Shown: positions 3,291-34,473 of the stretch, one piece after another
How positions within the stretch are numbered: the first letter of the stretch is position 1
How the letters are laid out: the number at the start of each line of letters is the position of its first letter
Assembly: GCA_020849095.1 (NCBI GenBank)
Contig: JADLGX010000320.1
Coordinates: forward strand, 1-62,776
Length of the DNA: 62,776 bases
Reading direction: 5' to 3'
Source of the DNA: Candidatus Eiseniibacteriota bacterium
GTDB taxonomy: Bacteria; Eisenbacteria; RBG-16-71-46
The notes under the pieces: generated by a model
What the model saw: only the letters and a program-made list of their open reading frames with translations
Database searches by the model: none
What the model was told of the DNA's origin: nothing
Translations under genes and position numbers: made by a program

Positions 3291-3515
3291 TCACCCGCGC
3301 TCGATCTCCCTCACATCCCCGACGACCTTCACGTACCCCACGCGAAACGACCGCGTCTCCCCGCTGCCATCGGCCACCTCGACGTTCTCCCCGACCACGT
3401 CGATCACCACCGCTGGCACCACCTCCGACCCCACCCGGAAGCGTACGACCGTCCCCTTGCGGACGGAGGCTCCTGCGCGCGGCGCCGTGCCTGGGACGAC
3501 GTCAGCATCCGACAT
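3291..3515 (-). CDS. Small beta-rich hypothetical protein, 74 aa
   Basis: The ATG at 3513-3515 overlaps the last codons of the 2077-aa gene. Sequence GTVVRFRVGSEVVPAVVIDVVGENVEV. No motif recognised; it may be a shadow ORF. Confidence 0.35.
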   Translation of the reverse strand: MSDADVVPGTAPRAGASVRKGTVVRFRVGSEVVPAVVIDVVGENVEVADGSGETRSFRVGYVKVVGDVREIERG

Positions 3516-16765: not shown

Positions 16766-16779
16766 TTCGTAACGTGCTC

Positions 16780-16795
16780 TGCGAATGCCGTGCCA
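16780..16795 (-). promoter_or_regulatory. sigma54-type promoter candidate TGGCACG-GCAT-TCGCA
   Basis: Matches TGGCACG-N4-TTGCW at 7/7 and 4/5 with exact GG-N10-GC spacing. Predicted +1 near 16769, 4 nt before the helicase ATG at 16765. Confidence 0.5.
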
Positions 16796-16854
16796 CCACT
16801 TCGCCTCACGTCTCGGCGCGCAATGCCGGGACAAGCCGCCGCGGCCACACAGAA

Positions 16855-16870: not shown

Positions 16871-16884
16871 AGAAGGAGCCTTCT
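16871..16884. promoter_or_regulatory. Palindrome AGAAGG-AG-CCTTCT (possible UAS)
   Basis: 6-bp arms. Same family as AGAAGA-GA-TCTTCT at 29499-29512. Centred about 108 nt upstream of the predicted +1. Confidence 0.4.
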
Positions 16885-17372: not shown

Positions 17373-19106
17373 CTACCCCCTCCCCAACGCCGCCGCGAAG
17401 TCGGAGCACGTCTCGAAGCGCTCCGAGGGAGCATCGCGAAGGGCCCGAGCGACCGCTGTATTCTGACGATTCGAAAGGCGCCCGAACTCACGCGGCTTGT
17501 AACGTCGTTTGAACACGAGCCCCTCCAGCATAGAGCAGAAAACGAGCGCGAGCGCGTACTGGTCCGTCTTCCGTTGCGCTTTCTCTCCGCGGAGCTGCTC
17601 CGGCGCCGCGTACGCCCGCGTGTACGCGACCGGAGCGGTGGCAAAGACCGTGGTGTTTCCGACCGTGTTCTTGCCGGTGCGTCCCTGGACCGCAATGCCG
17701 AAGTCGCCCAGGCGCACCTCCCAGGGGCTAGTGGTCGTCTTCACGAGCACGTTACCCGGTTTCACATCTTGGTGGAGAACGCCCTTCTTGTGCGCGTAGT
17801 CGAGACCGGCCGCCGCCTGACGAACGACCTCGATGGCGACGGCGAGCGCAAGCGAGTCGCCGCTTTCGATGATTCGTTCCAGCGATGTGCCGCCGTGGTC
17901 CATCACCAGGTACGTCCCGACGGTAGGATCGCAACCGTAGTCGATGTAGGTGCAGATGTTCTGGTGACGCAGGTCCCACGCGATGCCCATCTCCTCGCGG
18001 AGACGGGCCCGGGCTGGGTCCGACGAGGTCTTCAGCACGACCAACTTGCGCGGGTGCTCGAGCCGCATCGCTTCCCAGGCAACGCCGAAACCGCCTTCGC
18101 CGAGGCGACGGCGCAGCTCGTAGCGGCCGCTGACAATCCGCCTAGTTCTCTGGGAGGGCGGCAGCTCCGAGTCTTCGGTCTTGCGTCGCCTTTCCGGGGC
18201 GGGTGTCTTGCGCTCTTTTTCCTCCTCCTCCTCGCCCTCGGCCTCGCTGGTCGCTTCACCCACGAGTTCGGGTATCACGCGAGCCAACTTGGTGTTCCCG
18301 TTTGCTGCTTCCAGCCGGCGGACCACTTCTTTAGGCTCCACGTCGGCAACGTCGGCAACCCACCGTAGAAGTGACGGTGCGCGCATGGCGGTCGCGACCC
18401 TGAGCTCCGAGAGCATGGCGCGCGACGGTCCAAGCGCGCTGATCGGTTGCCCGGGCAGGAGGGTACTGAGCAGCGTCCTCCCGTTCGCCGCGCGAGCCTT
18501 GGCCGACAAGCTTCTGGCGGACAGGTCAACGCGACGAGCAAGCCAATTCAGAAGCGGCGGAGCGCGGCGGAGCGCTGCGGCAGGAATCGCACCCACGAGC
18601 TCGAAGACGGCAAAATCCCTCTCCGCATCCAGGAACCGCCGCTGGCTCCCGGGACGAACGGCATCATCGTGCTCTTCCTGTTCGTGGTCGCCGTTCTCGT
18701 CGTCCGCTTCCTCTAGCTCTTCCTGTTCATCGTCCTCGTCGTCGTTGTCGTCGTTGTCGTCGCTCTCGTCCTCCCCTTCCACGAGCTCTTGGAAGACGTT
18801 CGCAAGGAGGCTCTTGCCGTGCTCCTTGTTGAGTCGCGCTCGCACGGTGCGGAGTGAAAGGCCCGTTGCAGCGACAAGTTCCTGCTCGAGGTTCGCGTCG
18901 CGTGCGGCAGCTACAGTGATCCCCTCGAGCCTTGCGGAATCCTCGGGCCACTCATCCGAAAAGATGCGGCCTGCGAGCGTGTTGCCGTGAGCTCGAGTGA
19001 CGCGTGCCGTCACCTGGCGCGCCGAAAGCCCGGTGATTGCGACGAGCAGGCGCAGGTCGCGCTCGCCGAGCATGGAGACGCGGACGTCAGCGAGGCGCTC
19101 GGTCAT
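17373..19106 (-). CDS. Hanks-type Ser/Thr protein kinase with repeat-containing N-terminal region and acidic tract, 577 aa
   Basis: Kinase motifs LGEGGFG, VVLK, HQDVKPGNVL, GDFG and APE in the C-half. The N-half has four ~29-aa HTH/SAP-like repeats and a D/E-rich tract (nt 18663-18779). Confidence 0.85.
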   Translation of the reverse strand: MTERLADVRVSMLGERDLRLLVAITGLSARQVTARVTRAHGNTLAGRIFSDEWPEDSARLEGITVAAARDANLEQELVAATGLSLRTVRARLNKEHGKSLLANVFQELVEGEDESDDNDDNDDEDDEQEELEEADDENGDHEQEEHDDAVRPGSQRRFLDAERDFAVFELVGAIPAAALRRAPPLLNWLARRVDLSARSLSAKARAANGRTLLSTLLPGQPISALGPSRAMLSELRVATAMRAPSLLRWVADVADVEPKEVVRRLEAANGNTKLARVIPELVGEATSEAEGEEEEEKERKTPAPERRRKTEDSELPPSQRTRRIVSGRYELRRRLGEGGFGVAWEAMRLEHPRKLVVLKTSSDPARARLREEMGIAWDLRHQNICTYIDYGCDPTVGTYLVMDHGGTSLERIIESGDSLALAVAIEVVRQAAAGLDYAHKKGVLHQDVKPGNVLVKTTTSPWEVRLGDFGIAVQGRTGKNTVGNTTVFATAPVAYTRAYAAPEQLRGEKAQRKTDQYALALVFCSMLEGLVFKRRYKPREFGRLSNRQNTAVARALRDAPSERFETCSDFAAALGRG

Positions 19107-19171
19107 CGCGAAACTCTATCGCAGTGCGCGACGGTAGGGGGCGTGAAGCGCGGCCCCAAGGAGGTCCGGGG

Positions 19172-20065
19172 CTAACTGCACTTGGCAGCTCGGCCCGGTA
19201 CGGCATGGCGGTCGACGAGCTTGAATGTCGCGGTGCCCGCGTCAAAGTCAGATCGCACTCGGTGCCAGATGTCCGGGTCGAGGAGCGACACGTCGGTCTG
19301 CTGCCCCGGCGGCTTCTCGTCTAATCCCCCATCGACACGGACGCCGCCAAGGTCCGTCACGATGTAGCGAGCGTGAAATTGATCGCCGTCCGGAAGTTCG
19401 TTCCAGCGAAACAGCTCAACCTTGATTCCCCTCGGGATGAGTCGCGCAAGCTGGCTGTCGCACGAACTGCGGAAGAAGCGCTCGTCTGCCCTCGCGGTAA
19501 GGTGGACTTCGCATCGCCGCAGCCCACGTCCGTCCCGCGCGGCTTCGGTCAGAAGCGCCTCAAAGACCTTTCGGAAGCGCGGTGTCTCCGGGCCGAAATA
19601 CGGGTCGACCAGCTGAAGCTCGCGCGAGCACCTGAGGAGAGGCGACAAGAGCCCCGCAAGCGCGCGTCCCGTCTGGGCCACTCTGCACTCTCGAGCGACT
19701 CTCCAAGGTTCGGCGTCGGGGTCTAGGTCATCACGATTGACCACCTTGGGATGCGCTCTCGGGTTATCGAGGGCCACAATCGCCTTGAACAGCTCGGCCT
19801 CGCGCTCGGTTTCGACCAGCCAATCCCCCGCTGAGAAGTCGCGGGCTACGTCGCACACGGCCAGTGCTGTTGCCCTTCGGAGCCGATCCACAATGCGGAG
19901 CCTCTGCACAGGCTTCCAAGGCGCGGCCTCGAGGACGAGGTCCTGCCACTTCCTCGGACATCTTGCGATGAAGCGCCCAGTGCGGGGACCACACTGATCC
20001 ACGATTCGGCCGAAGTTGGCCTCATCTGCGATCGCAGATGGATCAACGGCAAAAACCTCGAACAT
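19172..20065 (-). CDS. Partner protein of the ATPase, 297 aa, with a C-terminal HxR(x)4D motif (PLD-like?)
   Basis: The ATG at 20063-20065 shares one nt with the ATPase stop (TGATG). C-terminal LVDPYF ... FHARYIVTDLGGVRVDGGLD resembles an HKD motif with K replaced by R. Confidence 0.6.
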   Translation of the reverse strand: MFEVFAVDPSAIADEANFGRIVDQCGPRTGRFIARCPRKWQDLVLEAAPWKPVQRLRIVDRLRRATALAVCDVARDFSAGDWLVETEREAELFKAIVALDNPRAHPKVVNRDDLDPDAEPWRVARECRVAQTGRALAGLLSPLLRCSRELQLVDPYFGPETPRFRKVFEALLTEAARDGRGLRRCEVHLTARADERFFRSSCDSQLARLIPRGIKVELFRWNELPDGDQFHARYIVTDLGGVRVDGGLDEKPPGQQTDVSLLDPDIWHRVRSDFDAGTATFKLVDRHAVPGRAAKCS

Positions 20066-21723
20066 CAAAAGAGCTCCCGCGACCGCTCCTCGAAGAAGCC
20101 TTTCGGCCATTGGTCAATGAACTCGCCCTGATCGTCTACACGGAGCTGATGCACGATCGTACCACCCAGGCCGCGCTCCAAATAGACGACGGCAAGCTGA
20201 GCTGGGCGCAGGCCGGGGTGGCCTTCAGGTAGCTCGCCTCCTGCGGTTTCGCGGATTCGCCGGAGAAGTCGGAGGATGAGGTGCTCGCTGTGGGTCTCAA
20301 CGATGAAGCGGTGCGCCTTGCCCGGTTGAATTCCTGCAACCAGGAGATCCGCAATGTCCGCCTGAAGGCGAGGGTGAACGTGGACCTCGGGCTGCTCGAT
20401 CGTGATGGTCTGCTCGTCTGATGCAAGCACTTGCACGACGAACGGCAGGAGCTGACTGATCCCGAAACCCACGTCCGGCAGTGCAACCGAGGTTGCGGCC
20501 GATCGCTTCTTGTCTTGAAGCCGCACTTCGAACAGATCATTGGAGCGACTACCCACCGGTTCGATGGCAATGCGATATCCAACATCAAGGCGAGTGAGCC
20601 AGTCGTTCGTCTCTTCGACCAGCTTCGGCCGACGAAAGAGAAGGTCCGGAAGCAGGTTCCCCGAGTAGCCAACATCAGGCGGCGTCGTCCCGGTGAAGAT
20701 GTACAGGCGCTGGGGAGCTTTCCTATAGGGCCCCAGCGGAAAGAGACGCTCGAGCGCCATCTCCAACGACACCCCCGCTTCCATCAATGTGTCCGCAGCT
20801 TCGATGAAGTGCGTCCGTAGCGGCAATCTGGATCGCCGGTGGTACGTCGCGGCGGTCCGCTCGGGGTATTCCCCCCCCGCATCTGGACTCACGGCAAACG
20901 GGATGAATCCGTCCAACGCGACAACTCCGCCGTGCGATGCGGATCGCCTCCGCGCTGCGTACGCGGCGAGGGAGAACTCAGAGTTGTAGAACCTGATCGC
21001 TGCGTCAACGGATTCGACCGTGAACTCCTCGTCCGGAAACAGCCGCCCTTGCCGATCCGGGTGTTGTCGCGCGATCTCTTCTCGCATCGCTGCGAGTGAC
21101 TCCAGAATCTCCGTGCGCAGTTGAAGGGTTCGACTGTATTCAGCCTCCCAGTAGTGGTCGTCGGCTACGACCTCCGTACACACGGCACCGCGCGGTCTTC
21201 CTGGGCCCTTCCTATCCCGTCGCATGCCGTACGGTCCAAAGGGTGAGAAACGGCGACTGTGCTGTAGCTGTGCACCGTGCAGATCCTGCGGTTCGAACTG
21301 GGCGACTGATTCAAGTCGTTGCCCATCAAAGACACGAAAGCCCGCTAGAGCGACGTCACCTGCCCCTTTTTGCCGGAACGATACCTCCAGACCAATGGCC
21401 CGCCCGGTCTCACCTTCGTCGCGTGTGCGGAGCATCCTTGACGAGCCTCGCAAGTCGAGCCGAAGAGACAATGTCCGCTCGGCATCGTGGTCGTACAAGA
21501 GCTCGTGAAAGCTCCCAAGATCCACCAACCCGCCCTCCGCGCGCGGCAGGAGCAGCGCTCCGTGTTCACGGCTGAAGCGTGTTTGCTTCAGAAGGTTGAG
21601 CGCATTCAAGATCGAGCTCTTCCCCGCGCTGTTCTCGCCGTAGATGAGGGTGATGGGAGCGAAGTCCAAGCGCACCCTGTTGCCGAAGGCCTTGAAGTTC
21701 TCCAGCTCAATTGCGTGAATCAT
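20065..21723 (-). CDS. AAA_15/ABC-type ATPase with DUF3696-like C-terminus, 552 aa
   Basis: N-terminus MIHAIELENFKAFG...GENSAGKSS (Walker A). Walker B/D-loop region ITIEQPEVHVHP, then ETHSEHL. C-terminal tail EFIDQWPKGFFEE. GGAGG lies 6 nt before the ATG at 21721-21723. Confidence 0.75.
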   Translation of the reverse strand: MIHAIELENFKAFGNRVRLDFAPITLIYGENSAGKSSILNALNLLKQTRFSREHGALLLPRAEGGLVDLGSFHELLYDHDAERTLSLRLDLRGSSRMLRTRDEGETGRAIGLEVSFRQKGAGDVALAGFRVFDGQRLESVAQFEPQDLHGAQLQHSRRFSPFGPYGMRRDRKGPGRPRGAVCTEVVADDHYWEAEYSRTLQLRTEILESLAAMREEIARQHPDRQGRLFPDEEFTVESVDAAIRFYNSEFSLAAYAARRRSASHGGVVALDGFIPFAVSPDAGGEYPERTAATYHRRSRLPLRTHFIEAADTLMEAGVSLEMALERLFPLGPYRKAPQRLYIFTGTTPPDVGYSGNLLPDLLFRRPKLVEETNDWLTRLDVGYRIAIEPVGSRSNDLFEVRLQDKKRSAATSVALPDVGFGISQLLPFVVQVLASDEQTITIEQPEVHVHPRLQADIADLLVAGIQPGKAHRFIVETHSEHLILRLLRRIRETAGGELPEGHPGLRPAQLAVVYLERGLGGTIVHQLRVDDQGEFIDQWPKGFFEERSRELF

Positions 21724-21799
21724 GGTTGACCTCCGAGCCTCCTGTGCAAGCGTCGGGCCATGCGAGACAAGCACCAGTCCGATCGATGTTTGGCGGTCG

Positions 21800-21838
21800 G
21801 ATGCCCTTCAAGTTCTCCAGCTCGATGCGTGTGATCAT
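21800..21838 (-). pseudogene. Vestigial 5' end of an AAA ATPase gene ([13 protein letters not shown]...) coupled to the hsdS stop
   Basis: The ATG overlaps the hsdS stop (ATGA). 39 nt are about 77% identical to the start of the functional ATPase gene 115 nt downstream. The frame then degenerates. Confidence 0.45.
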
Positions 21839-23013
21839 GCTCGTCCCAGTTCCCCGCGAAACGCCTGCTGCGTGAGAGCGTCGAACAAGTCGGCCGCGAT
21901 CCTGTCGTGCGCTCTCTGCGTGGCTTCCACCTTCGCGCAACGCCCAGCGACCGTTTCCAGCGTGCGCTGAAGCGCGAGCGGGGGAACCGGTAGCGCCAAC
22001 TCGCGAATTCCCGGGCCACTGAAGTTTTGCTGCGCCGATTGCCGCGAGCGGCGCGCGATGAACGCCTGGACACGTTCACTGGCGATCACCATCCGCGCAT
22101 AGCGCGGCAGCACGCGCTTCTTCAGTTGCAGGCGAATAAAGTAGGCGCCCGCGACACACTCGGGCGCCTCTTCCTCGACGAGTGCCGTCTTGCCGACTGT
22201 CGCCCCGGTTCTTGCGAAAATGATCTCGCCCGGCTTGAGCGCGTACCGGGCACGGTCCGCCTCGGACATCGAGAGGCGGGGCATCGATTCGAAGTCCAGC
22301 GCCCCCCCCGCGCTGAGGTCAGTGATGCGCACGATGCGCACTCCGTCACTCGAGTACTTCTCGTTGTAGAAGCGAGGTCCGTACTCCATTTTCTGCAGCT
22401 CGGCGCCGAACGTTGACACCGGCCACCCCTTCGGATTCGTCACCGGGTCCCCGAACATCTCCAAGAACGCCGACCGCAGCAGCTCCTCGGTGAGCGCGAT
22501 GGCGTGCTTCCGCTTGCGCCGAACCGCGTCGGCATTGTCGAGGATGTCGGCGATGCGGCGCTGCTCGGGAAGCGGGGGCAGCGGCAGCTCCAGTGCCTCG
22601 AGGTCACGAGGGCTCAGACGTGGAAGATTTGCGCCGGCGCACCTGAGCACGGCCTCTTCGACCGTCTTGGGGTGACGCAGGAAATGGAACAGGAATCCGC
22701 GGTCAACCCGCGGGCCAGGAAGTATCGGCACAATGTCCGTGCTGCAGATGCCGTAGAAATCCGGGCGCGCGGTCTTCTTCAGGTAGGGTCGCAACTTCCC
22801 AAACAGGATGTGCTTCGGCCCAAAGCGAAACTTGTTGCTGGCCAGCACGCCCGATACCACGGGCGACATCCCGACGAAGTTTCCGTCACTGTCGATATGC
22901 TCAAGCCCGACGTAGTTCGTCCCCGTCGCGATGTCTCCGGGCAGAACAGCGTCGCGCTCGATGCTCGCGACGTCGTCAACACGCACGCGCTGCCAGGCGG
23001 CGCCGGTCGTCAC
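21835..23013 (-). CDS. hsdS: Type I restriction-modification specificity subunit
   Basis: Two target-recognition halves separated by the conserved [24 protein letters not shown] spacer. ATGA overlap with hsdM. Confidence 0.85.
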
Positions 23014-24512
23014 AACATCCCCTCCAGCGCCTTCAGGTCCTTCGCAATCTCCGCCTCCAGCGCCCGCAGCTTGCCGATGATCACCTTCGGCGACTCGTAC
23101 TTCACCTCTTCGTGCACTGTCTCCTTGTATCGGTTGATGGAGAGGTCGAAGTTCTTCTCCCGAATGTCAGCGACCGGCACCATGAAGTGCTTGGCCGTGC
23201 GGTCCGCGTCCTGCTTCGGGTTCCTTTTTCGCCAGCGCTCGAGCGCATCCGGCAGGTCGTTCTCCTTGACCGGGTCGCGCTTGTCGTCGAGCGAGAAACC
23301 GTCGGCGCCGACGTCGTGGAAGAAGACGTGATCCGTCTCGCCATTCTTCGTGAATACGAGGATGGCGGTCGACACGCCCGCGTACGGTCGGAACACGCCC
23401 GACGGGAGTGAGATGACAGCCTCGAGCTGGTTGTCGTCGACCAGCATCTTGCGGAGCGCGACGTGGGCTTTCGACGATCCGAAGAGAACGCCGTCAGGCA
23501 CGATGGTCGCGCTGCGGCCGCCCTTTTTAAGCATCCGCAGAATGAGCGCGACGAACAAGAGCTCCGTCTTCTTCGTCTTCACCTTCTGAGTGAGCGACGG
23601 GTGCACATCCTCGGCGTCGAGGCTCCCCTTGAACGGCGGGTTCGCCAGCACCACGTCGAAGCAGCCGCTGGCCTGCTTGGGGAAACGCTCCGGGAAGGAG
23701 TTCGAGAGCGTGTCCTGGTAGTGGATGTCGGGGTTGTCCACGCCATGGAGCATCAGGTTCATCGACGCGATACGGAGCATGGTGCTGTCGAAGTCGAAGC
23801 CATGGAACATGTCGTTCTGGATGTGGCTCCGGTGCTGCTCCAGCTTGTCGCCCGTGTAAACCCTCTCGCCGCTCTCGGCCTTGTAGGTACCCTTGGCGGA
23901 GCTGTGCTTCTCGAGCAAGTACAGCATTGTCCCAACAAGGAAGCCGGCCGTGCCGCACGCCGGATCGCCCACGGTCTCGGTCGGCTTCGGCTCGAGCATC
24001 TCGACCATGAAGCGGATGATGTGGCGTGGAGTCCGGAACTGTCCGTTGATGCCGGCCGTCGTCAGCTTGCTCAGCAAGTACTCGTAGAGGTCGCCCTTGG
24101 TGTCGCCCTCGGTGATGGGCAGGGCATCAATCCTGTTCACGGCGGAAACGAGCAGGCTCGGCCTCTGAATCATGAGCTGTGCGTCGGCCATGTACTCGCC
24201 GAAGGTCGTGCCGCCGTTGAGGCTGCGGAAGTGCGGGAACACCTTGTCGCGCACGATGCCGAGCATCTTCTCAGCCTTGAGGTGCCGGAAATGCGACCAG
24301 CGCAGATCCTGCTCCTTCGGGCCGAAGACGGGCTTGAACGGCTTCTTCGTCCGCGCGGCACGCGCCTCGTTGCGCGTCTCGGCGACGTCGAGCAAGCGCG
24401 CGAACATCAAGAACGAGATTTGCTCGATGACCGTCAGCGGATTGGTGATACCGCCGGTCCAGAACTCCTCCCAGAGCTTGTCGATGTCGTTCTTGAGCTT
24501 TCCAGTGATCAT
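23010..24512 (-). CDS. hsdM: Type I restriction-modification N6-adenine DNA methyltransferase
   Basis: HsdM-type N-terminus ([21 protein letters not shown]), AdoMet motif [10 protein letters not shown] and catalytic NPPF (VLANPPFKG). ATGA overlap with hsdR. Confidence 0.9.
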
Positions 24513-27500
24513 GCTTGCTTGCTCTCAGGGGGTGGGCTCGACGGGTCTGCCTTGCGCGGTTGGAACGCCTCGAGGATTCCGAGGAGCTCGTCGAGCTGAC
24601 CCTTCTCGGTGAACAGGCCATCGACACCGTTGGCGTGAAGGTCGGTGAAGGGAGGGTCGTAGAGGCGCTCGAGCTCGATGCCGCCGTTCTGTGCGATGTG
24701 ATTCTTCAGTAGCTGCAGAAACCTGAGCTGCTGGGCCGAAAGGTGCAGGTGCTTGTGGACGAAGCCAGTGAACGCGGCATCGACCGCTTCGGGATCGAGG
24801 CCCACGAGACCGCGAAGCGCGTCAGTCAGCGATTGCCTCGTCTCCGGCTGGATCAGGTGCTTGAGGTTCGCCTTGTCGTCGACCTGGAGCACCAGCTTCG
24901 CGAGTGCGTCCAGGTCCTCGTCCCGGACTGTCTTGCCGGCGCGAATGCGCTGGAGGGTGGGGTCATTCATGAAGTGCTCGCGCAGGACTCTTTCCACGCG
25001 ATGCCGGTACTCGATCAGATCCAGGCCATCGAGCGTGGGCGTGCGATCGTAGCTGTGCACCACTTGCTCTGCGACGTCGTACACCTTGGGTACGAGGCGA
25101 GAGGGATTCGTCTGCGCCTGGTACTTCATGATGCCGCGGAGCTCGGTTCGGATCTCTTCGAGCTTGGCGGCGGTCACGGTGGCCCAGAGCTCCTTGCTCT
25201 GGACCGCGCGAATGGCCTCGGCCTTCGCCTTGACCGGGTTCTGGTTCTTCATGAGCAGCGCGACCTCGGCTTCGACGGCAGCCTTCAGATCCGCCACCCT
25301 GGGCGACCCCTTGATCACCGCCTCCTCGAGGCGCGTCATGAGCAGATCGAACCGGTAGGCATCCTCGTCACCTCGGATGTTGCGCCACTGCATGAGCGGC
25401 GCGGCGATGGATAGCAAGTCTGCCTTGGTCGCTGCCGCGAACTGGGCGACGGTGTCCCGGTTGGACAGGAGCTCGAGCTCCCGCCGCCGGTCGCGCACGT
25501 CGATGCTCCTCGAGTCCATCGCGTCGCGGACGTCCCTGACCAGGAGGTCCACGGTTGACTGGAAGTCAGGCTCGCTCATGGCGTCGAGCGCCGCCTGAGC
25601 GACAGCCATGCGCGCTTCGAACAAGTGTTGAAGCAGGGACTTCTGGGGAGCCGGCTGCTTCTCCTGGTACTCCTCTTCGAAGAACCAGAAGTTCTTGCCG
25701 TGGTCGAAGATGAGGAACTCGGACTTGTCGTTGCCGGGACCAAACAGGTCTCGACATAGCCGGGTCCCGCGCCCAATCATCTGCCAGAACTTCGCCGGCG
25801 TCTTGACCGCCTTTGCGAAGACGAGGTTCACGACCTCGGGGACGTCGATGCCCGTGTCGAGCATGTCGACAGAGATGGCGATGACGGGCTCCGAGTCCTT
25901 GGTCTTGAAGTCGTCGATGAGCTGATCGGCCCGCGGTTCCTGGTGGTCGATGACTCGGCAGAAAGCGCCGCCGTACTGCGGGTACATCTCCGCGAAGAGC
26001 TCGGCGAGGTGGACTGCGTGCAAGTGACTCTTCGCGAAGACGATCGTCTTGCCGACGCGGCTGCCCGTGGCGTCGCGGATGCCCTCTTGCATCAAGCTCC
26101 GGAGGACGACACGGCTCGTGTCCTTGTTGAAGACATCGCGATCGAGTTGTGCGGGCGTGAATTCAACGCTGTCTGGCTGGTCTTCCTGCGCCTCCAGCTC
26201 CGTCTGCTGGTCCGCCGACATCTGCGAGTACCTGAACCCCTCCTCGCGGAACCGCGTCTGAAACTCGCGCACCCGGAACGGCACGAGGTACGGAGGAATC
26301 GAGCTCACCGCCTCCTCGTAGGTGAAGTTCGCTGTCGGGTCGTTGTGCTCGCACCCAAACAGCTTGAAGGTGTCTCGGTCGGCGTACCTGAGCGGCGTAG
26401 CCGTCAGGCCCACCTGGAACGCATCGAAGTACATCACCAGCTCGCGGTACTTCTTGTAGATGCTCCGGTGCGACTCGTCGAAGATGACTAGGTCGAAGAA
26501 CCCGACGTCGAACGTCTCGTAGCACTTCAGCATCGCTGGGTAAGTCGCGAGGTAGATGCGCTTGTCTCGGTCGGACGAGGTCGTGCTGTCGACTACCACT
26601 CGAGGCTCGTCCGGGAGGAACTCCTTGAAGACGTTGTTGGCTTGCTTGCGAAGCTCGCGCCGGTCGCAGAGGAAGAGAATGCGTTTGGCCCAACCCGCAC
26701 GCATGAGCAGATCGCAGAGCGACACGGCGACGCGAGTCTTGCCAGTGCCGGTTGCCTGGACCAGCAGCGCACGGCGAAACTTCTGCTCGAAGCGCTCGTT
26801 CACGCGCTTCATCGCCTCGAGCTGGTACATGCGCTCGGCGATGGTGATGTCCGGGGCCATGGTGGCCAGCGGTTTCTTGTTCTTTCGCTGGTGCAGGAGG
26901 TATTCGAGACTGTCTTTCGAGTAGAAGCCGTAGACCTTTCGCGGGGTGAACCCCTGCGAGTCGTCCCATACATAGATGTCGATGCCGTTGCTGTAGAAGA
27001 TGACCGGCCGCTGTCCGGTTTCTTTCTCGAGGCAAGTGGCGTAGATGCGTGCTTGTTCCTGACCGATGCGGGCGTCCTTGGCGGTCTTCTTCGCCTCGAC
27101 CACGGCCAACGGCTTGCCGTCATCGCCGTAGAGCACGTAGTCGGCATAACCTTCTCGCGACTCGGTGGGCATCGTCGAGAGCTGGATCTCTTGACCCACC
27201 TGATCGTTGCTCTTCCCGCCAGCGCCGACGTTCCAGCCCGCCTCGACCAGTGCTTGGTCGATGAGGCGGCGGCGCGTTGCCTCCTCGCTCAGATGGAGGA
27301 CGTTCGCCGCTTTCTGTCCCTCGCTGCGGAGCGCCTCGAGCTGTTCCTGGGTGTGTGCGACGAAATTCTCGGCCGCCTCGCGCTTCCGCCGTTCGTCTTC
27401 GAGGTCGGCGAGCACCTTCTGGAGTTGCGCGTCCTGCTGGGCCAGCTTCTCCAGGGCGTCCTTCTTCGCCTTCTGGAGCGCCGCGCTGTCGGTCGCTGCC

Positions 27501-27940
27501 GTCGCCGGAGGGTCTGAGTAAGCCGGGCACTGAGCGCGGTTGCCCTGATCGATGCGGAGGAAGACCCACTGCGCGATGTCGAAGGCGTCACGAAGCGCCT
27601 GGAGCGCGGCCTGCGCGCTCGGAGGGTCGTGGTGAGCAGCCTTGTTGCCTGCTTTGCGGATTGTGTGGAGCTTGCCGAGCACCACATCGGGGACGGCGGT
27701 CCGAAACGGCGTCTCGTTCAGGAGATCGAAGACGCTATCGGTGTACGGCCGTGGCAGTCGGTAGGTCTCGTAGATGATGGCGACGACGGTCTCCATGAAG
27801 GAGCGCAGCTTCACGAGCGCGCTTGCGGGGTCCGGACGCGCGTAGACCTCGGCGAACCCACCGAGGTCGGCGAGCTCGGGATGCCTCGGTCGCAGGAACT
27901 CGAAGTTCCTCGACTTCATCAGCGCGTCCTCGGGGAGCAT
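24509..27940 (-). CDS. hsdR: Type I restriction enzyme R subunit with N-terminal DUF4145/HEPN-like module and EcoEI-type C-terminal domain
   Basis: N-terminal NFEFL...[10 protein letters not shown], helicase motifs VQATGTGKT and DESH, long helical C-domain. The alternative start ATG 27919 (MKSRNFEFL) has a GAGGA 7 nt upstream. Confidence 0.85.
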
Positions 27941-27972
27941 GCTCGCCCCAGCAGCACGTTCCGTTCCATCAT
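27938..27972 (-). promoter_or_regulatory. 35-nt element ATGATGGAACGGAACGTGCTGCTGGGGCGAGCATG (sigma54-like TGGAAC-N5-GTGC) ending at the hsdR ATG
   Basis: GG-N10-GC spacing. It overlaps the activator's TGA stop. 27/35 identical, ungapped, to the element at 29563-29597 on the other strand. Confidence 0.45.
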
Positions 27973-29465
27973 TCCTTCACCCCGTACCTCGTGAGCCAGC
28001 CTTTGAGCGTTTGGTAGCTGGCGAGGCCGACCAACGATGCCGCCAGGGTCTTGTTGCCCTGGGCCTCCTGCATGGCGCGAGACAGGTAGTGGCGCGCCAC
28101 GTCCGCCATCAAGTCCGACAGGTTGAAACCGCCGCCCAAGGGGCGGCCGAGGACTTCGGGAGTCAACGACCTTGGCGCGGCGAGTAGCGCATCGCGCGCC
28201 TCGCCCTCATCGATGACCGCGCCCCTCGACCAGATGAACGCCCGCCGAAGGGTGGACTCGAGCTCCCGCACGTTGCCAGGCCAATCGTACCGGAGAAGAA
28301 GATTTCTTGCGCCGACAGAAACCTTCTTCTGGACGGCGCCGGGCCGGCTGGCCATCTCCGCGTTGAGCTTGTCGAGCAGCCTATCGAGCAGAAAACTAAC
28401 GTCGCCCTCGCGCTCCCTGAGCGGCGGCGTCTTGAGGACCAACACCGCCAGCCGAAAGTAGAGGTCTTCTCGGAATCTTCCTTCGCGCACCTCTTGGAGG
28501 AGGTTGCGGTTGGTCGCGGCGATGACACGCACGTCTACGGGCACGTCGGCCCGGCCGCCAATGGGCCGTACTCTTCGCTGCTGCAGAGCTCTCAGCAGCT
28601 TGGCCTGGTGCTCGACCGCGAGCTCACCGACTTCGTCCAGGAAGAGCGAGCCGCCGTCCGCTTGCTCGAAGAACCCCTTGTGGTCGCGGTCCGCGCCGGT
28701 GAAGGCGCCCCGGGTGTGCCCGAAGAACTGCGACTCGAAGAGCTCCTTTGGGATAGCGCCGCAGTTCACTTCGACGAAGGGCTTGCCCTTCCGCGGACTT
28801 TCCCCGTGAATGGCCTCGGCGAGCAACTGCTTGCCAGTGCCGGATTCACCTTCGATGAAGACGGACTCGGAGAACGGGGCGGCTTGCCGGGCACGGCGGA
28901 CCAAGCGCTTCATCACCTCGCTTCGGTGCAGAATATCACCGAATTTTGGCTCTTCCGGGCGAACACCGTCAGCAAGCTTCGCCAGGTCCGCGCTGGTCTG
29001 TTGGACGGCGGCCGGGATGAACTCCGCAGCCAGCTCGAACGGAACGTTGACCGTCGCGACGCCCTTCTCCCTCGAGGACTCTATGAGCTCCGCCCCGAAC
29101 CGGGTCTTGGCGACGATGATCCAGATCGCCGCCATCGCGGGGGTGCCGGGGCTGAGGTGGAAAGTGAGCCTGGTCTTGGCGCCGTGCTTCTCGAGCGTCC
29201 AGGCGACAGTGCTGCTCACCGCGCGGTAGATGTCGGCGTGGTCAGTGGGAGACGACAGCACATGTTGCTGAACGACCACTTCCGCGTCGGTCTGCTTCGC
29301 AACCCAACGCACGTACGGGTTGATCTGCTCTTTGGGGAAGTTGTTCAGCAGAACGACCTGGTCGAACTTGCGCGCCGCCAGGGCCTCCGCGATGGGGCCC
29401 GCGCCGCCACCCTCAGCGGCCTTGAGATCGGTCAGGCCGATCCACGCCAGGAGCACACGAGCCAT
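27969..29465 (-). CDS. CARF-like (RtcR-type) sensor domain fused to a sigma54-dependent AAA+ activator and Fis-type HTH, 498 aa
   Basis: GESGTGKQ Walker A, GAFTGA loop (HTRGAFTGA), RFREDLYFRL, C-terminal HTH. The N-domain MARVLLAWIGLTD...TFHLSPGTPAMAAIWIIV resembles the RtcR CARF pattern. Start set at ATG 29463-29465; the 151-aa upstream extension in the track was rejected. Confidence 0.75.
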   Translation of the reverse strand: MARVLLAWIGLTDLKAAEGGGAGPIAEALAARKFDQVVLLNNFPKEQINPYVRWVAKQTDAEVVVQQHVLSSPTDHADIYRAVSSTVAWTLEKHGAKTRLTFHLSPGTPAMAAIWIIVAKTRFGAELIESSREKGVATVNVPFELAAEFIPAAVQQTSADLAKLADGVRPEEPKFGDILHRSEVMKRLVRRARQAAPFSESVFIEGESGTGKQLLAEAIHGESPRKGKPFVEVNCGAIPKELFESQFFGHTRGAFTGADRDHKGFFEQADGGSLFLDEVGELAVEHQAKLLRALQQRRVRPIGGRADVPVDVRVIAATNRNLLQEVREGRFREDLYFRLAVLVLKTPPLREREGDVSFLLDRLLDKLNAEMASRPGAVQKKVSVGARNLLLRYDWPGNVRELESTLRRAFIWSRGAVIDEGEARDALLAAPRSLTPEVLGRPLGGGFNLSDLMADVARHYLSRAMQEAQGNKTLAASLVGLASYQTLKGWLTRYGVKE

Positions 29466-29498
29466 CGGCCCTGGGAGGGTAACAACTCCTCTGGCGCC

Positions 29499-29512
29499 AG
29501 AAGAGATCTTCT
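29499..29512. promoter_or_regulatory. Palindrome AGAAGA-GA-TCTTCT (possible UAS) in the divergent intergenic region
   Basis: 6-bp arms, extended imperfectly to CCAGAAGAGATCTTCTTGG. Centred about 88 nt upstream of the predicted +1 of the 29563-29597 element. Confidence 0.4.
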
Positions 29513-29562
29513 TGGGCGGGGGGATTCGACCCATGGAAGAACCGAATGATCCGGCGACTGCG

Positions 29563-29597
29563 ATGATGGAACGGTTCGTGAAGAAGGGACGTGCATG
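29563..29597 (+). promoter_or_regulatory. 35-nt element ATGATGGAACGGTTCGTGAAGAAGGGACGTGCATG ending at the ATG of the coiled-coil nuclease gene
   Basis: Twin of 27938-27972. -24-like TGGAAC; the -12 position reads GTGA (GA instead of the canonical GC). Same 28-nt distance from TGG to ATG. Confidence 0.4.
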
Positions 29598-31298
29598 ACC
29601 ACGCAAGCTCCCCTCACGGTTCTCGTCGGCGTCGAAGCCGACGTCGTCGAAGCGCATATCCGAGACCGCCGCACCGACGCGGTGTCCGTTTTTGAGCCAC
29701 TGAACGAAGCCCAGCGGGTGGGTCTTGTCACCGACGCCTGGACCGTCGGCCTTCGCGCTCTCATGAACGCCTACAAGCAAGCCGAGGAAGCTCGCTTGCA
29801 GGACATCGGTCGCACGCTGAGCGAGGACCTGGAGCGGCAGCTCGCCGCGTACGTCGAGCGGCAGCAGGCGACGTTCGTCCAGGTGCTGGCGCGGTACTTC
29901 GACCCCCGCGACGGGCAAGTTGTCGCTCGGCTCGAGGGATTCCTCCGCGACGGTGGCGAGCTCGCACAGACCATGGACCAGTTCCTGGCGCCAGGGCGGG
30001 GCGCTCTGGCACAGACGCTGGCCCGCGAGCTCGGAGAGAACAGCTTGCTGCTCAAGCGCCTGAGCCCGACGGACAGCGAGGGAGTGATCTTTTTGCTGGA
30101 GTCCAAGCTGCGCGAGGCGCTGGCTTCAAGCCAGGTGGAGGTTGCCCGTGCGCTCGATCCGAGCGCCGAAGACGGTGCCGTCGCCAGGTTCCTGCGCGCT
30201 CTCCGCCAGGAGCTCGAGAAGGCCGACAGCGACCGGAGCAAGCAGCTCGCGTTGGCCACCAAGGCATTGGACGCCAACGACGAGACGTCGCTCTTGAGCC
30301 GAATGATGCGCGAGGTTTCCGACGCCCGAACCGCGTTCGTCACTTCGATGAACCCGGACCTGCCCGACTCCCCGATGGCGGTGCTCAAGACGGCGCTCTC
30401 GACCCTGCTCGAGCAGCACGTCCAATCGCAGCAGGAAGCCATGGAGCGCATGCAGGAGCGCCAGCAGAAGTTCGAGGCGGACGTCCGCGAGGCACTCGTC
30501 CGTATCGAAGAGCGCAAGCGCGGCGAGCTCAAGTCACCTCGAGGCGGCATTGCCTTCGAGGACGCGGTAACCCGCTTCGTCCAGCGGTCCGTTCAAGGCG
30601 CGCCCGTCACCGTTGACGCGACCGGCAATACCGTTGGCGCCAAGGCGGGCTGCAAGGTCGGCGACCAGGTGCTCCGCTTCACGGCCGAGAGCGCGTACTC
30701 CGGGTGCGCGCTCGTGGTAGAGGCCAAACGAGAGGCCGGGTACACGGTGACCCAGGCGCTGGCGGAGCTCGAGCTGGCTCGCGGTAACCGCTCGGCGGGA
30801 ACGGGTCTGTTCGTAATGTCCAAGAGCCACGCGCCGAAGGGGTTCCCGAACTTCGCGCGTTACGGCAGCGACATCCTCGTCGTCTGGGACGACGAGGACG
30901 AAGGGACTGATCCCTACCTTCACGCAGCAGTCGTCTTGGGCCTCGCACTGGCGAGCCAGCAGAGGCGTAGTGAGGACGAGGGCGACATCAGCGCCCTCGC
31001 CGACATCGAACATCGCATCCAGAAAGAGGTCGACCGTCTGGGCAGAATGCGGGGTCTGGCCGAGTCCATCCAGGGCGACGCCGAGAAGCTGGCTGACGAA
31101 ATCCGGAAGGGTGGCAAAGGCCTGGACCTGCTGCTCCGCAAAGCGAAGTCCACGCTGAAGGCGCTGAACGTGGAGTTGACCGAAGCCGAGGAAGCAAGGG
31201 CCGAGCCGGTCGGGCTGGCGGCGGGGTCGCTGGTGGAGGCGAGGGGGGCGCTGGCTGGTGGCGACGACGGCACGGGCGACGCAGACGCGCGACACTGA
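29595..31298 (+). CDS. Coiled-coil protein with C-terminal PD-(D/E)XK-like domain (RmuC/DUF2130-like), 567 aa
   Basis: About 330 aa of heptad-like Q/E/A/L/R-rich sequence, then SPRGGIAFEDAV...KVGDQVLRF...CALVVEAKRE (D ... E-x-K) ...GLFVMSK. Confidence 0.65.
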   Translation: MTTQAPLTVLVGVEADVVEAHIRDRRTDAVSVFEPLNEAQRVGLVTDAWTVGLRALMNAYKQAEEARLQDIGRTLSEDLERQLAAYVERQQATFVQVLARYFDPRDGQVVARLEGFLRDGGELAQTMDQFLAPGRGALAQTLARELGENSLLLKRLSPTDSEGVIFLLESKLREALASSQVEVARALDPSAEDGAVARFLRALRQELEKADSDRSKQLALATKALDANDETSLLSRMMREVSDARTAFVTSMNPDLPDSPMAVLKTALSTLLEQHVQSQQEAMERMQERQQKFEADVREALVRIEERKRGELKSPRGGIAFEDAVTRFVQRSVQGAPVTVDATGNTVGAKAGCKVGDQVLRFTAESAYSGCALVVEAKREAGYTVTQALAELELARGNRSAGTGLFVMSKSHAPKGFPNFARYGSDILVVWDDEDEGTDPYLHAAVVLGLALASQQRRSEDEGDISALADIEHRIQKEVDRLGRMRGLAESIQGDAEKLADEIRKGGKGLDLLLRKAKSTLKALNVELTEAEEARAEPVGLAAGSLVEARGALAGGDDGTGDADARH

Positions 31299-31314
31299 CA
31301 CCCAGGGATTCGGC

Positions 31315-32175
31315 GTGAACACGAAGCAACACTTCCTCCCGGCGGGCTTTCTCAAGAACTTCTCAGCTAGTCCATCGGCAGGCCGCGAGGCTCCCGTCTG
31401 GGCGTTCGACGGGCAGCGGTCCTTCCAGACCGCAGTGAAGAACGTCTGCGTTGAGGGCGACTTCTACACCTTCGACCGCGAGCAGGAGTTCAACGTGCAC
31501 GGGGAGCTGGAGACCGGGCTGTTCGACGTGCTGCCAAAGCTACTCGACGGTGATCGGACAGACCGTGTGCTCGTTTCGATGCTGTTCCACGCGTGTTACT
31601 TGCACATTCGGGGACGCGAGTTCGAGAACGCGTCGGGCGTGGCCCGATTGAACGCAATCCAGACGCACGGAGTGACGTTCATCTGCCGGCACGTTCTTCG
31701 GATGAGCCTGGAGGAGCAGCCGCTCGGCCGAGCGACTGCGCGTCTCATGGTCAGTACCGCTCTCACGGACTTCCACTTCGAAGTCGTTCGAGCCGACACA
31801 TCCTCCGGTGACACGGACTTGTACTGCTCCGATAACCCGGTGGCGATCTTCACACGGGACGGGAGGCCGGATCTCTTGGTGTTGCCGCTAACCGCGACCC
31901 AGCTCTTCGTGGCAGCACGCGCATCTGCGTTCGAGACCCGTGGGAACAAGTACGACGAGACCGACGCCGCGTGGGCGAACAGCGCCCAGTGCTACTTCAC
32001 TCACCGCCAAGTGTTCTCGCGTCACGAGATGCCCGAACAGGACAGGATGCAAGCCGCGGCGCTGATGCGGAGAAGACCGAAGACCAACTCTGCGCTCGAA
32101 CCGGATTCGCTTACGGTCACGCCGTCCAGCATCCCGAAGCCCCTTCCCTCTTTTCTGGTAGCGCGGGTCGAATGA
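31315..32175 (+). CDS. DUF4238-like protein, 286 aa
   Basis: The N-terminal KQHFLPAGFLKNFS matches the H-[YF]-[LIV]-P-x-x-[YF]-L-x-x-F hallmark of DUF4238, as I recall it. GTG 31315 lies 6 nt after AGGGA and 16 nt after the upstream stop; the track start 31258 overlaps the upstream gene. Confidence 0.55.
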   Translation: MNTKQHFLPAGFLKNFSASPSAGREAPVWAFDGQRSFQTAVKNVCVEGDFYTFDREQEFNVHGELETGLFDVLPKLLDGDRTDRVLVSMLFHACYLHIRGREFENASGVARLNAIQTHGVTFICRHVLRMSLEEQPLGRATARLMVSTALTDFHFEVVRADTSSGDTDLYCSDNPVAIFTRDGRPDLLVLPLTATQLFVAARASAFETRGNKYDETDAAWANSAQCYFTHRQVFSRHEMPEQDRMQAAALMRRRPKTNSALEPDSLTVTPSSIPKPLPSFLVARVE

Positions 32176-32262
32176 CCGACATTCCGCTCCCTGACCCGAC
32201 CCTTCGGTTGGATATGCTCGAGGAGATCGGCACGCGAGCCCGGCCTTGCACGGGATTGGCGA

Positions 32263-34473
32263 TCAGTCGTCTGCAGCAGCTATCGTAGCCAAGCCGTTTG
32301 CGCCCAGGCTTGCAGCCGTCACGGTGTTGACCGTCAGGATCACGGTGACCACGACCCCTTCGCCGCACAGCTCGAGGCCGGAAGGCAACGTCCTGGATTC
32401 CCGATAGCTTCCCACCCGGAAGCCTGTCTCGAAATCTGCCGTGACCACCGACAGCATTTCTGCATCGTCCGTGCCCTTCCCCGAAATACTCACCGGTACC
32501 CGCACCTCGAGCGGCTTCCCGGTCCCGCCCGGCCATACACGCAGGGAAACGCTCGCGGACACGCCGGCCGCAAGATCTAGCAACACGACGCCGGGACCCA
32601 TCGACACGCAGTTGCCGCCAGCCACTGCGCGACGAATTGCCTGCCAGAGCTGCGCCGCTTGGGCGCGAATGCCTTCCCACCCGACGGTCCCGCGCTCCTT
32701 GTAAACCCTTCCGCGAACTGGGCCCCGGGATGAGTGGGAGCCTTCGATCCGATTGAAGTCCGGCTCGATGGGCGCCATGCCGAACGCGGGTGAGTGCTCG
32801 ACCATCGAGAGCCACGTGTCTTCGTCAGTTGGCGTCCACCTGTCAGGCGGGAAGTGCAGTGGGCGGGCCTCCCGGATTTGGGGCTCGTACGAAAGGCGTC
32901 CGCTCTGCTCGTCGCCGTGCCACTCCTCAAGGCTGACCCACACGATGCGGTCGGACTCCGTGGCCACAACGTCGTCCAGCCACCGTGGCCGCCCTGACAA
33001 CCACGGTTCGTCCGAGCTGAGCTGAGAGCGAACCTTCTCCAGGACCGCCACGAATTGCACCGGGCGGCCTTCGGATCGCTTCGGCACGAGGCGAGCGGTC
33101 ACAGGCGGCAGAGCTGGGCCGAGCAACGCGCCGAGCACCACCAGCGGATCAGGGACCAGGTCACCGTGCCGCTCGGGCGGCTTCGCGGGGCAGCGCAAGA
33201 GCGAAGTCCTTGCATGGACAACGAGACGCTCGTCCTCACCAGGCACCGCAAGTGCCGGCAGTGCGCTTTCGAGGAAGGGATCGCGAAGGTAGTCCTCGTG
33301 GACCCAAGTGCTGAGCAAGCCCAGCACGCGGGCCAGCGGCGAGGAGGGCGCCTTCACCGCGTGCACTCTCACAATCGGCTCGTTCGCGAACTGCTCCGCG
33401 ACCTCCGCGGGGATGTTGATCAGATGTAGCGATCCGTCGACTCGCAAGACCGTTGGTCCTGTCTCTCGTGTCTTCGCGCGAAGCAGCACCCTGGCGAGCT
33501 CGTCCGTGCTGCAGGACGCGACTCCCCTGACCCCCTGGGCCGCGAGCTGTCGCCCCAGCATTGCCAGTCGTGCATCAACTCGTTCGGATTCGGTCGATGC
33601 CACGGAGATGCCGAGTCGTCGCCCCAGCGCAAGCCGGTCCCCCGCACTCCATCCAAGGTCCCGCGCACCCTGCTCTGTCGACAGCTCCCACATCAAGCGT
33701 CTCAGGCGCAGCGGGTCGTCGGGCAGTTCCAGTTCGTGGCCACCGCCATCACCGTCCACGTCGTCGCCAACAGGTGCGTCGATGCGTGGCAGTGGGGCGA
33801 GGGCGCCGCGCTTCTGGAACACTTCGAACGCATCCGGAGGCTCCAAGACCAGGCTGCCGCTACGCACCGCGATGGCAGCCCACCGGGAGTAGTCTGGGAA
33901 TCGCGTCGGGGAAAGAACGAGTCCTTCCACCCCCGCTTCGTCTTCGAGGACGGAGTCGGCTTCTTCCGGGGTCACCCGGCAGATGCGCACCCGGGCCTTC
34001 CAGTCGTCGAACGTCCTGGGCAGGGCGCGGTATTGCTCCTCGGTGAGCACGAGGACTGCAGGGAAGAGGCCATGCTCGCGGAGGACCACTGACTCGACCG
34101 CGCGGAAGACTTGGTCGAGCTCGTCGCGCGTGCCATGCCAAGGCGTGATGTTCACGAGAAGTCGGGCGGGTTGCTGCTCCACTGGCACCAGCAACTCGTT
34201 CGCCATCTTGCGGATGTGTCGTCGCTGGTCGTGTGGCACGTCGAGTAGGTCGAAGAGTGGCTCGCCCTTCTCAGGCGTCAGGAAGAAGAACCGAATGCCA
34301 ACTGGATCGTTCTTCATGAGGCGGCTGAGGCTCGATGCAAGGTGTGAGGCGGTGTAGGTCTTTCCGGTCAATTCAGCCCATTTCTGGCCCCACTCGAGCG
34401 CGACCGCCTTCTGCTGCTGATCGCCAAAGTAGCCCCTGAGGATCTCTCCAATGCCCATCGCTTCGTTCTCCAT
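32263..34473 (-). CDS. Large hypothetical protein, 736 aa, no recognisable domain
   Basis: Uninterrupted ORF with coding-like composition. Start set at ATG 34471-34473 (MENEAMGIGEIL). No P-loop or catalytic motif seen. Confidence 0.6.
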   Translation of the reverse strand: MENEAMGIGEILRGYFGDQQQKAVALEWGQKWAELTGKTYTASHLASSLSRLMKNDPVGIRFFFLTPEKGEPLFDLLDVPHDQRRHIRKMANELLVPVEQQPARLLVNITPWHGTRDELDQVFRAVESVVLREHGLFPAVLVLTEEQYRALPRTFDDWKARVRICRVTPEEADSVLEDEAGVEGLVLSPTRFPDYSRWAAIAVRSGSLVLEPPDAFEVFQKRGALAPLPRIDAPVGDDVDGDGGGHELELPDDPLRLRRLMWELSTEQGARDLGWSAGDRLALGRRLGISVASTESERVDARLAMLGRQLAAQGVRGVASCSTDELARVLLRAKTRETGPTVLRVDGSLHLINIPAEVAEQFANEPIVRVHAVKAPSSPLARVLGLLSTWVHEDYLRDPFLESALPALAVPGEDERLVVHARTSLLRCPAKPPERHGDLVPDPLVVLGALLGPALPPVTARLVPKRSEGRPVQFVAVLEKVRSQLSSDEPWLSGRPRWLDDVVATESDRIVWVSLEEWHGDEQSGRLSYEPQIREARPLHFPPDRWTPTDEDTWLSMVEHSPAFGMAPIEPDFNRIEGSHSSRGPVRGRVYKERGTVGWEGIRAQAAQLWQAIRRAVAGGNCVSMGPGVVLLDLAAGVSASVSLRVWPGGTGKPLEVRVPVSISGKGTDDAEMLSVVTADFETGFRVGSYRESRTLPSGLELCGEGVVVTVILTVNTVTAASLGANGLATIAAADD

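Follow-up and report, generated by a model that had tools for sequence, protein, structure and literature searches.

A predicted soluble PD-(D/E)XK nuclease as conserved divergent partner of an RtcR-like activator in a mobile type I restriction-modification island, with a DUF4238 gene as probable passenger

The contig JADLGX010000320.1 of a Candidatus Eiseniibacteriota bacterium (assembly GCA_020849095.1) was analyzed over its full stretch of 62,776 nucleotides (nt), hereafter referred to as the window. Two adjacent plus-strand genes stand in the center of this study: one for a helical protein of 567 amino acids (aa; 29595–31298), termed CC nuclease, and one for a DUF4238 protein of 286 aa (31315–32175). 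All positions are given in the numbering of the window and all residue numbers refer to the 567-aa protein. By comparison of related sequences, the nuclease gene is conserved as the divergently transcribed neighbor of an RtcR-like activator that heads a mobile type I restriction-modification (R-M) defence island. Overall we favor, with somewhat better than even confidence, the reading that the gene encodes an activator-gated soluble nuclease effector of this island, probably expressed from a leaderless mRNA, and that the DUF4238 gene is a passenger. In the initial annotation, which was made from the sequence alone, both genes were regarded as a paired target operon of the activator. Both proteins proved to be real, with open reading frames (ORFs) 16 nt apart, but their interpretation as a paired system did not withstand the comparison with other loci.

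The conservation of the gene neighborhood was examined with ORF-based gene calls in 58 other species-level nuclease loci, each taken together with flanks of at most 10 kb per side. By phylogeny these related loci are not independent of one another, and fewer independent observations stand behind the counts than their size suggests. The activator divergently adjoins the nuclease gene in about 46 of these 58. This arrangement occurs in Myxococcota, Acidobacteriota, Planctomycetota, Gemmatimonadota, Eiseniibacteriota and in metagenome-assembled genomes (MAGs) of Lysobacterales. Behind the activator, most loci carry the same hsdR/hsdM family. With a type I system of only 30–35% identity, the activator-nuclease pair is still kept in L013, L023, L028, L032, L047 and L055. 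Starting from the activator, 201 genomes of the Sorangium class contain 17 copies of it; the nuclease gene is located next door to ten of these, and three to four more copies lie at contig ends. Because the nuclease family is rare in the window's phylum (2 of 206 genomes, none of 15 congeners) and its closest homologues, with 75–86% identity, are found in Polyangiaceae-type MAGs, the island looks horizontally acquired.

The activator gene (27969–29465, minus strand) is divergent from the nuclease gene and encodes a protein of 498 aa composed of a CARF domain, an AAA+ domain and a helix-turn-helix (HTH) domain. Over its whole length the protein matches the PADLOC model RtcR_PspF2 with E=2.1e-187. 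In Pfam, Sigma54_activat (E=2.3e-67) and AAA_lid_14 were matched together with a weak HTH_8, and the GAFTGA motif is seen in the translation. Compared to the NCBIfam equivalog of RtcR, NF038308, the protein reaches 314.9 bits at a cut-off of 650 and is therefore not RtcR proper. Its CARF domain matches the PADLOC model CARF4--CARF_PDDEXK at E=5.8e-15.

For the 567-aa protein, at least 508 homologues were found at E≤1e-3 among 8000 scored candidates. The best 120 of them share 53–86% identity and are nearly all about 550–600 aa long. All labels of the homologues read "hypothetical", with the exception of one "gas vesicle protein" from the Joint Genome Institute. No family of Pfam, NCBIfam or PHROG was matched by the protein, the PADLOC models gave no match at E≤0.1 except LeoBC at 0.033, and sequence searches of the PDB with the single protein as well as with a profile of 34 sequences returned coiled-coil noise only. 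The motifs KVGDQVLRF and LVVEAKRE, on which the prediction of a restriction fold had been based, are both found in the protein.

This fold was recovered in structural models. The full-length AlphaFold2 (AF2) model is mediocre, with a pLDDT (predicted local distance difference test) of 70 and a pTM (predicted template modeling score) of 0.36, and its Foldseek E-values are weak; residues 320–455 form an alpha-beta-beta-beta-alpha-beta unit in it. For this reason the nuclease domain was modeled alone. With 53 sequences, AF2 predicted for residues 312–462 a structure of pLDDT 90 and pTM 0.87 with an alpha-beta-beta-beta-alpha-beta core. The best PDB match of this domain model in Foldseek is McrC (probability 1.00, TM score 0.56), followed by MspJI, SPO1766, EcoT38I, AspBHI, SgrAI, PspGI and BamHI among the other top matches, all of them PD-(D/E)XK nucleases, although the E-values are modest with 2.7e-3 as the best. 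No exchange of D357, E376 or K378 (GD...EAK) is seen in 34 full-length or in 53 domain sequences, and the catalytic D...(D/E)-x-K motif is placed on strands 2 and 3 (model strands 358–362 and 372–378). Since the top matches are uniform and the invariant motif sits on these two strands, the model-based PD-(D/E)XK assignment can be regarded as solid. Weak matches to the Mrr_cat profile were obtained for 6 of 34 family members. The protein is thus a candidate nuclease with a putative role in defence.

While the predicted restriction fold was thus recovered, its proposed C-terminal position was not. The domain (30552–30959, plus strand) is internal at about residues 320–455 and is followed by a helix of 60 residues and a disordered tail. 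Helices, several of them very long, make up the N-terminal 310 residues, which also hold many invariant non-heptad motifs, for example YFDPxDGQV and ALDANDExSL. The RmuC/DUF2130-like architecture assumed earlier was not reproduced: RmuC (PF02646) is matched neither by the window protein at E≤0.1 nor by any of 34 family members at E≤0.05, and the threshold of DUF2130 (PF09903) was not reached, with one of the 34 members matching at E=0.012. No transmembrane segment was detected in the protein, the highest Kyte-Doolittle mean over 19 residues being 0.98, and as a hydrophobic segment is absent the protein is predicted to be soluble and cytosolic. A membrane-protein reading was rejected by the same value. 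Membership in RmuC, DUF2130 or ShdA was rejected as well, based on the unmatched profiles and the missing membrane anchor.

In front of the nuclease gene, a sigma-54-type −24/−12 element, TGGAACGGTTCGTGA, is located on the plus strand at 29567–29581, 13 nt before the ATG. The comparison covered 45 intergenic regions, from 44 loci and the window, in which ten consensus positions were scored against 900 shuffles. The consensus TGGCACG-N5-TG(C/A) is kept at nine or more positions in 34 of the 45 regions, compared to 5 of the 900 shuffles, and at eight or more in 44 regions. In 44 of 45 regions the ATG follows the −12 element after 12–17 nt. The element of the window is a variant common to its closest relatives. 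Within the window, the full promoter pattern occurs only before the nuclease gene and before hsdR, and a strict scan of the window for TGGCAC-N5-TTGC gave 69 matches compared to 60 expected, which is the chance level. In full-length loci that lack the activator the element is absent, and ordinary GGAGG leaders and other upstream motifs are found instead. It is present on two short contigs that end before the position of the activator. The sigma-54-like element facing a CARF activator, as described in the initial annotation, gains support from its retention in 44 of 45 activator-bearing loci and its absence from full-length loci without activator. The gene rpoN was found in the genome of the window. 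With sigma-54 holoenzyme, transcription begins some 12 nt past the C of the −12 element. As the spacing of the ATG matches this start, we infer a leaderless or near-leaderless mRNA of the nuclease.

A second sigma-54-type element, TGGAACGGAACGTGC, is found on the minus strand at 27954–27968, where it abuts the TGA stop codon of the activator gene and is separated by 13 nt from the first hsdR ATG. Nine or more consensus positions are present in 36 of 46 loci, compared to 1 of 920 shuffles, and in 36 loci the element directly follows the TGA. This conservation suggests that the restriction subunit itself depends on the activator. A further conserved ATG of hsdR (MKSxNFEFL) was noticed at 27919, 21 nt beyond the first one.

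Putative activator-binding sites (upstream activating sequences) occupy 29481–29512; the first site is degenerate, whereas the second, AGAAGAGATCTTCT at 29499–29512, is a perfect palindrome. The two palindromes are about 20 bp apart and lie next to the start codon of the activator, about 55–85 nt upstream of the −24 element. Their positions are kept in related loci, with ACAAG-N4-CTTGT in many of them and AGAAG-N4-CTTCT in the clade of the window, in which both half-sites are changed alike. The exact palindrome occurs in two copies in the window (29499–29512 and 16871–16884) and is 100% conserved in contig L061 of a sister lineage. The second copy lies in the gap upstream of a helicase-peptidase gene (14411–16834, minus strand), and judged by this sequence identity the same activator may act there as well.

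The second gene of the pair begins with a GTG at 31315, 16 nt after the stop codon of the nuclease gene, and is preceded by the Shine-Dalgarno-like sequence AGGGA. Its assignment to DUF4238 was confirmed: the protein matches Pfam PF14022 with E=2.7e-13 and 50.4 bits (cut-off 27) over profile positions 1–279 of 281. In a genome-wide profile search it was the sole copy, with 44.9 bits. Only one close relative was found, 86% identical, and an exhaustive search gave 91 cluster representatives at E≤1e-3 with about 25–31% identity to most of them. In sequence terms the protein is a very divergent member of its family. DUF4238 occurs in 4 of the 206 genomes of the phylum and in none of the 15 congeners. 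Two of the three other loci in the phylum adjoin type I R-M genes (L073, L075); in L075 the order on one strand is hsdR-hsdS-hsdM, a gene for 294 aa and DUF4238. DUF4238 may preferentially insert where R-M operons end.

The close spacing of the two genes raises the question of a dedicated two-component defence system with interdependent parts. The gap of 15–16 nt on the same strand is consistent with such a system. A pattern scan of 29300–32500 revealed no sigma-70-like promoter, and no terminator-like site was found in the gap between the genes. Further, the order hsdR - activator - nuclease - DUF4238 is kept in the sister lineage, known from contigs of six metagenome samples, at 83–86% protein identity. 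However, a tblastn search with the DUF4238 protein found it in none of the 58 nuclease loci, a search which a very divergent DUF4238 could escape, and the downstream side of the nuclease gene shows nothing conserved: all-against-all clustering of the downstream ORFs gave no family in more than four loci, and tblastn with the convergent 778-aa neighbor gave 0 of 58. At none of the three further DUF4238 loci in this phylum was a neighbor from the nuclease family seen. In addition, one DUF4238 protein on its own makes E. coli strongly resistant to T7 (Rousset et al. 2022, PMC9122126), which bears out the statement in the initial annotation that a stand-alone gene protects from phages and speaks against interdependent parts. 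The only shared case is the sister lineage, whose contig L061 is collinear with 24080–32233 of the window at 85% nucleotide identity. Because of this collinearity, the adjacency is, on sequence grounds, the result of a single acquisition by a shared ancestor at the block's edge and not an independent co-occurrence. The homology ends at 32233, 58 nt past the stop codon of DUF4238. Beyond this point, the window continues with the 778-aa orphan on the minus strand and L061 with unrelated plus-strand genes including PcfJ and DUF2779. The initial annotation had named beforehand, as the finding that would speak against a pair, that the two families never co-occur elsewhere, and apart from this common descent that is essentially what was found. 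We consider a dedicated two-component system very improbable and conclude that DUF4238 is probably a separate single-gene anti-phage module that was added recently, not a partner conserved by selection across the nuclease family.

Two further explanations concern the 567-aa protein itself. It could mainly serve the activator, as its feedback regulator or as an adaptor for its signal, with the nuclease fold used for nucleic-acid sensing more than for killing. PspA, encoded divergently from pspF, is a feedback regulator of PspF and represents a familiar case of this kind. According to PMC9650030, RtcAB bind the CARF domain of RtcR and are required for activation. The survival of the activator-nuclease pair through an exchange of the R-M cargo and the many invariant motifs outside coiled coils in the N-terminal half would also fit a feedback partner. 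On the other hand, the D/E/K triad is invariant in 53 of 53 domain sequences, which argues for catalysis, and the family is also found without such an activator, still beside R-M genes. Feedback control as the main function is thus judged unlikely. Slightly less probable still is an RmuC-like recombination or repair factor that would limit or process double-strand breaks introduced into the host chromosome by the type I enzyme, in a restriction-alleviation or repair role, and would not be an anti-phage effector. Long helices combined with a PD-(D/E)XK domain resemble the RmuC/DUF2130 build, the single weak DUF2130 match among 34 members points in the same direction, and so does the location beside R-M genes even where the activator is missing. 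Against a repair function stand the unmatched RmuC profile and the location of the gene on mobile defence islands with the scattered distribution given above (2/206 genomes, 0/15 congeners), which is unlike a housekeeping repair gene. Moreover ShdA, the nearest characterized nuclease inside type I R-M loci, is a defence effector with an RmuC domain. The activator-gated effector which we prefer has points against it as well. About 4 of the 17 activator copies in the Sorangium class have no nuclease gene beside them, and conversely there are nuclease loci with no activator; since each is found without the other, the coupling is frequent, not obligatory. Conservation is high in the N-terminal 310 residues, an important part of the protein, but their model is poor (pLDDT about 50–80). 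The window's own promoter deviates from the consensus with A at −22 and TGA for TGC at −12, leaving 8 of 10 positions, a score that about 9% of the shuffles reach. Its credibility therefore rests on orthology and not on the window alone.

For the activator-gated effector the following mechanism is proposed. The activator would bind the palindromes next to its own start codon and, once its CARF domain senses a signal, would open the putative sigma-54 promoter that precedes the nuclease ATG by 13 nt as well as the twin promoter of hsdR. By analogy with RtcR, this signal would probably be derived from infection or RNA damage. The nuclease would be translated from a leaderless mRNA. Sigma-54 promoters do not form an open complex without an activator, and for this reason a soluble, potentially genotoxic DNase could be kept off until the signal arrives. 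The rationale for such tight gating is taken by analogy from ShdA of the Shield system, a membrane-anchored RmuC-type nuclease with non-specific DNase activity that is toxic in soluble form and resisted cloning without its anchor (Macdonald et al. 2023, PMC10270631). After induction, the nuclease would serve as a second-line effector beside the R-M system, either degrading DNA or aborting the infection. DUF4238 would have inserted at the island edge, 16 nt downstream of the nuclease stop codon, in the ancestor of the window's lineage and its sister. Due to this position, it would be carried on the nuclease transcript in the window's lineage and thus be co-induced. A more far-reaching proposal, to which we give less than even credence and which we put forward as tentative, is that an unnamed and widely distributed soluble PD-(D/E)XK family forms a transcriptionally gated effector arm of CARF signaling, with twin sigma-54 promoters from which an infection or RNA-damage signal would induce a leaderless nuclease mRNA and, in parallel, hsdR, and with DUF4238 recruited to it in the window's lineage.

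The remaining genes of the island follow the activator on the same strand. The type I R-M genes were identified with Pfam and PADLOC as hsdR (24509–27940, with a DUF4145 N-terminus), hsdM (23010–24512) and hsdS (21835–23013), all on the minus strand. Directly behind hsdS, an AAA_15/AAA_21/DUF3696 ATPase, a 312-aa protein and a Ser/Thr kinase are encoded in this order (17373–21774, minus strand). The ATPase is similar to PDC-M55A, HEC-03B and NsnB of PADLOC, and the kinase matches PD-T4-6 models. After the helicase-peptidase gene, the Druantia type III pair (3502–13033) closes the same-strand block at the end opposite to the activator, with DruH3 at 9650–13033 and DruE3, a protein of 2077 aa with DEAD, Helicase_C and MZB domains, at 3502–9735 (both minus strand). 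Among the annotated genes of the window, none for rtcA, rtcB, McrBC/CoCoNuT, a cyclase or Cas10 was noticed.

Some observations were made at other loci of the nuclease family. Several loci without activator still have R-M genes as neighbors: in L012 these are type IIG-like methylases, and in L056 a HindI-type HsdR is found. In activator-less loci, the upstream motif TTGTTTAGTGTTAYRCAACA was found in L012 and L021, and TGTCAGA in L039, L043, L044, L046 and L056. Decayed-looking copies occur as well. Matches to R-M and nuclease genes lie in pieces in L010 and L054, in L047 this applies to the nuclease match alone, the copy at G295:C105:1745-3382 has an in-frame TAG, and a short remnant with stops is found beside an intact-looking activator at G403:C88:14792-15016.

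What is known of CARF domains concerns mainly their role as allosteric switches in fusions with effectors. The occurrence of RtcR-like CARF activators next to R-M systems was noted before but, to our knowledge, never dissected. The locus described here represents a compact case, in which a single activator with palindromic sites is combined with two nearly identical predicted sigma-54 promoters and defined targets. If the activator-gated reading is true, the type I restriction subunit and the nuclease that accompanies it would be inducible and not constitutive immune genes, and a large family of "hypothetical proteins" with more than 500 sequences in several phyla would gain a function. A single-gene module such as DUF4238 could then become induced through its mere insertion at the 3' end of a unit of this kind. 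The combination of nuclease and DUF4238 as a system is of little importance. Also the earlier claim that the regulation is undescribed holds only in part. The regulator class and its linkage to R-M systems are known already, since RtcR-like CARF-NtrC-HTH proteins were linked to R-M systems by Makarova et al. (2014, PMC4012209) and, according to Bell et al. (2024, PMC11090510), RtcR homologues head superoperons with type I R-M, Druantia III and CoCoNuTs, for which fragments of RNA whose ends carry cyclic phosphates are proposed there as the signal. In word searches of the latter text, neither a divergent nuclease partner nor mapped promoters came up. The soluble nuclease family as a conserved target, the twin sigma-54 promoters of leaderless type and the recruitment of DUF4238 would be the additions suggested by the sequence comparison.

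The predicted circuit shares features with several known systems. Similar to RtcR and rtcBA of E. coli and Salmonella, an activator with CARF, AAA+ and HTH domains faces a divergent, predicted sigma-54 target, with its putative sites in the shared intergenic region. In contrast to them, the target is a nuclease and not a set of RNA-repair enzymes, the activator stays below the RtcR equivalog cut-off, and hsdR is faced by a second predicted promoter, located at the stop codon of the activator itself. In accordance with the superoperons of Bell et al., the regulator heads a long co-directional block, which comprises hsdRMS, ATPase, kinase, helicase-peptidase, DruH3 and DruE3 here. ShdA genes are located inside type I R-M loci of RtcR-associated islands (PMC10270631, PMC11090510), and the window nuclease resembles ShdA in its restriction-endonuclease fold after long helices and in its occurrence within or beside type I R-M loci of such islands. 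It differs by the lack of an N-terminal membrane anchor and of the Pfam RmuC domain, and its control would be transcriptional instead of relying on membrane tethering. The DUF4238 gene has a full-length Pfam profile, a similar size and a location at the variable edge of a mobile element in common with the DUF4238 system from a P2 hotspot (PMC9122126); unlike that gene it is very divergent and is placed inside a predicted sigma-54-dependent unit, not stand-alone. Finally, the coupling of a CARF sensor to a PD-(D/E)XK output is also found in Can1, Can2 and Card1 of type III CRISPR systems, and Can2 is among the weak fold matches of the full-length nuclease model. In contrast to these allosteric fusions, sensor and nuclease are separate proteins in the window and would be linked through transcription.

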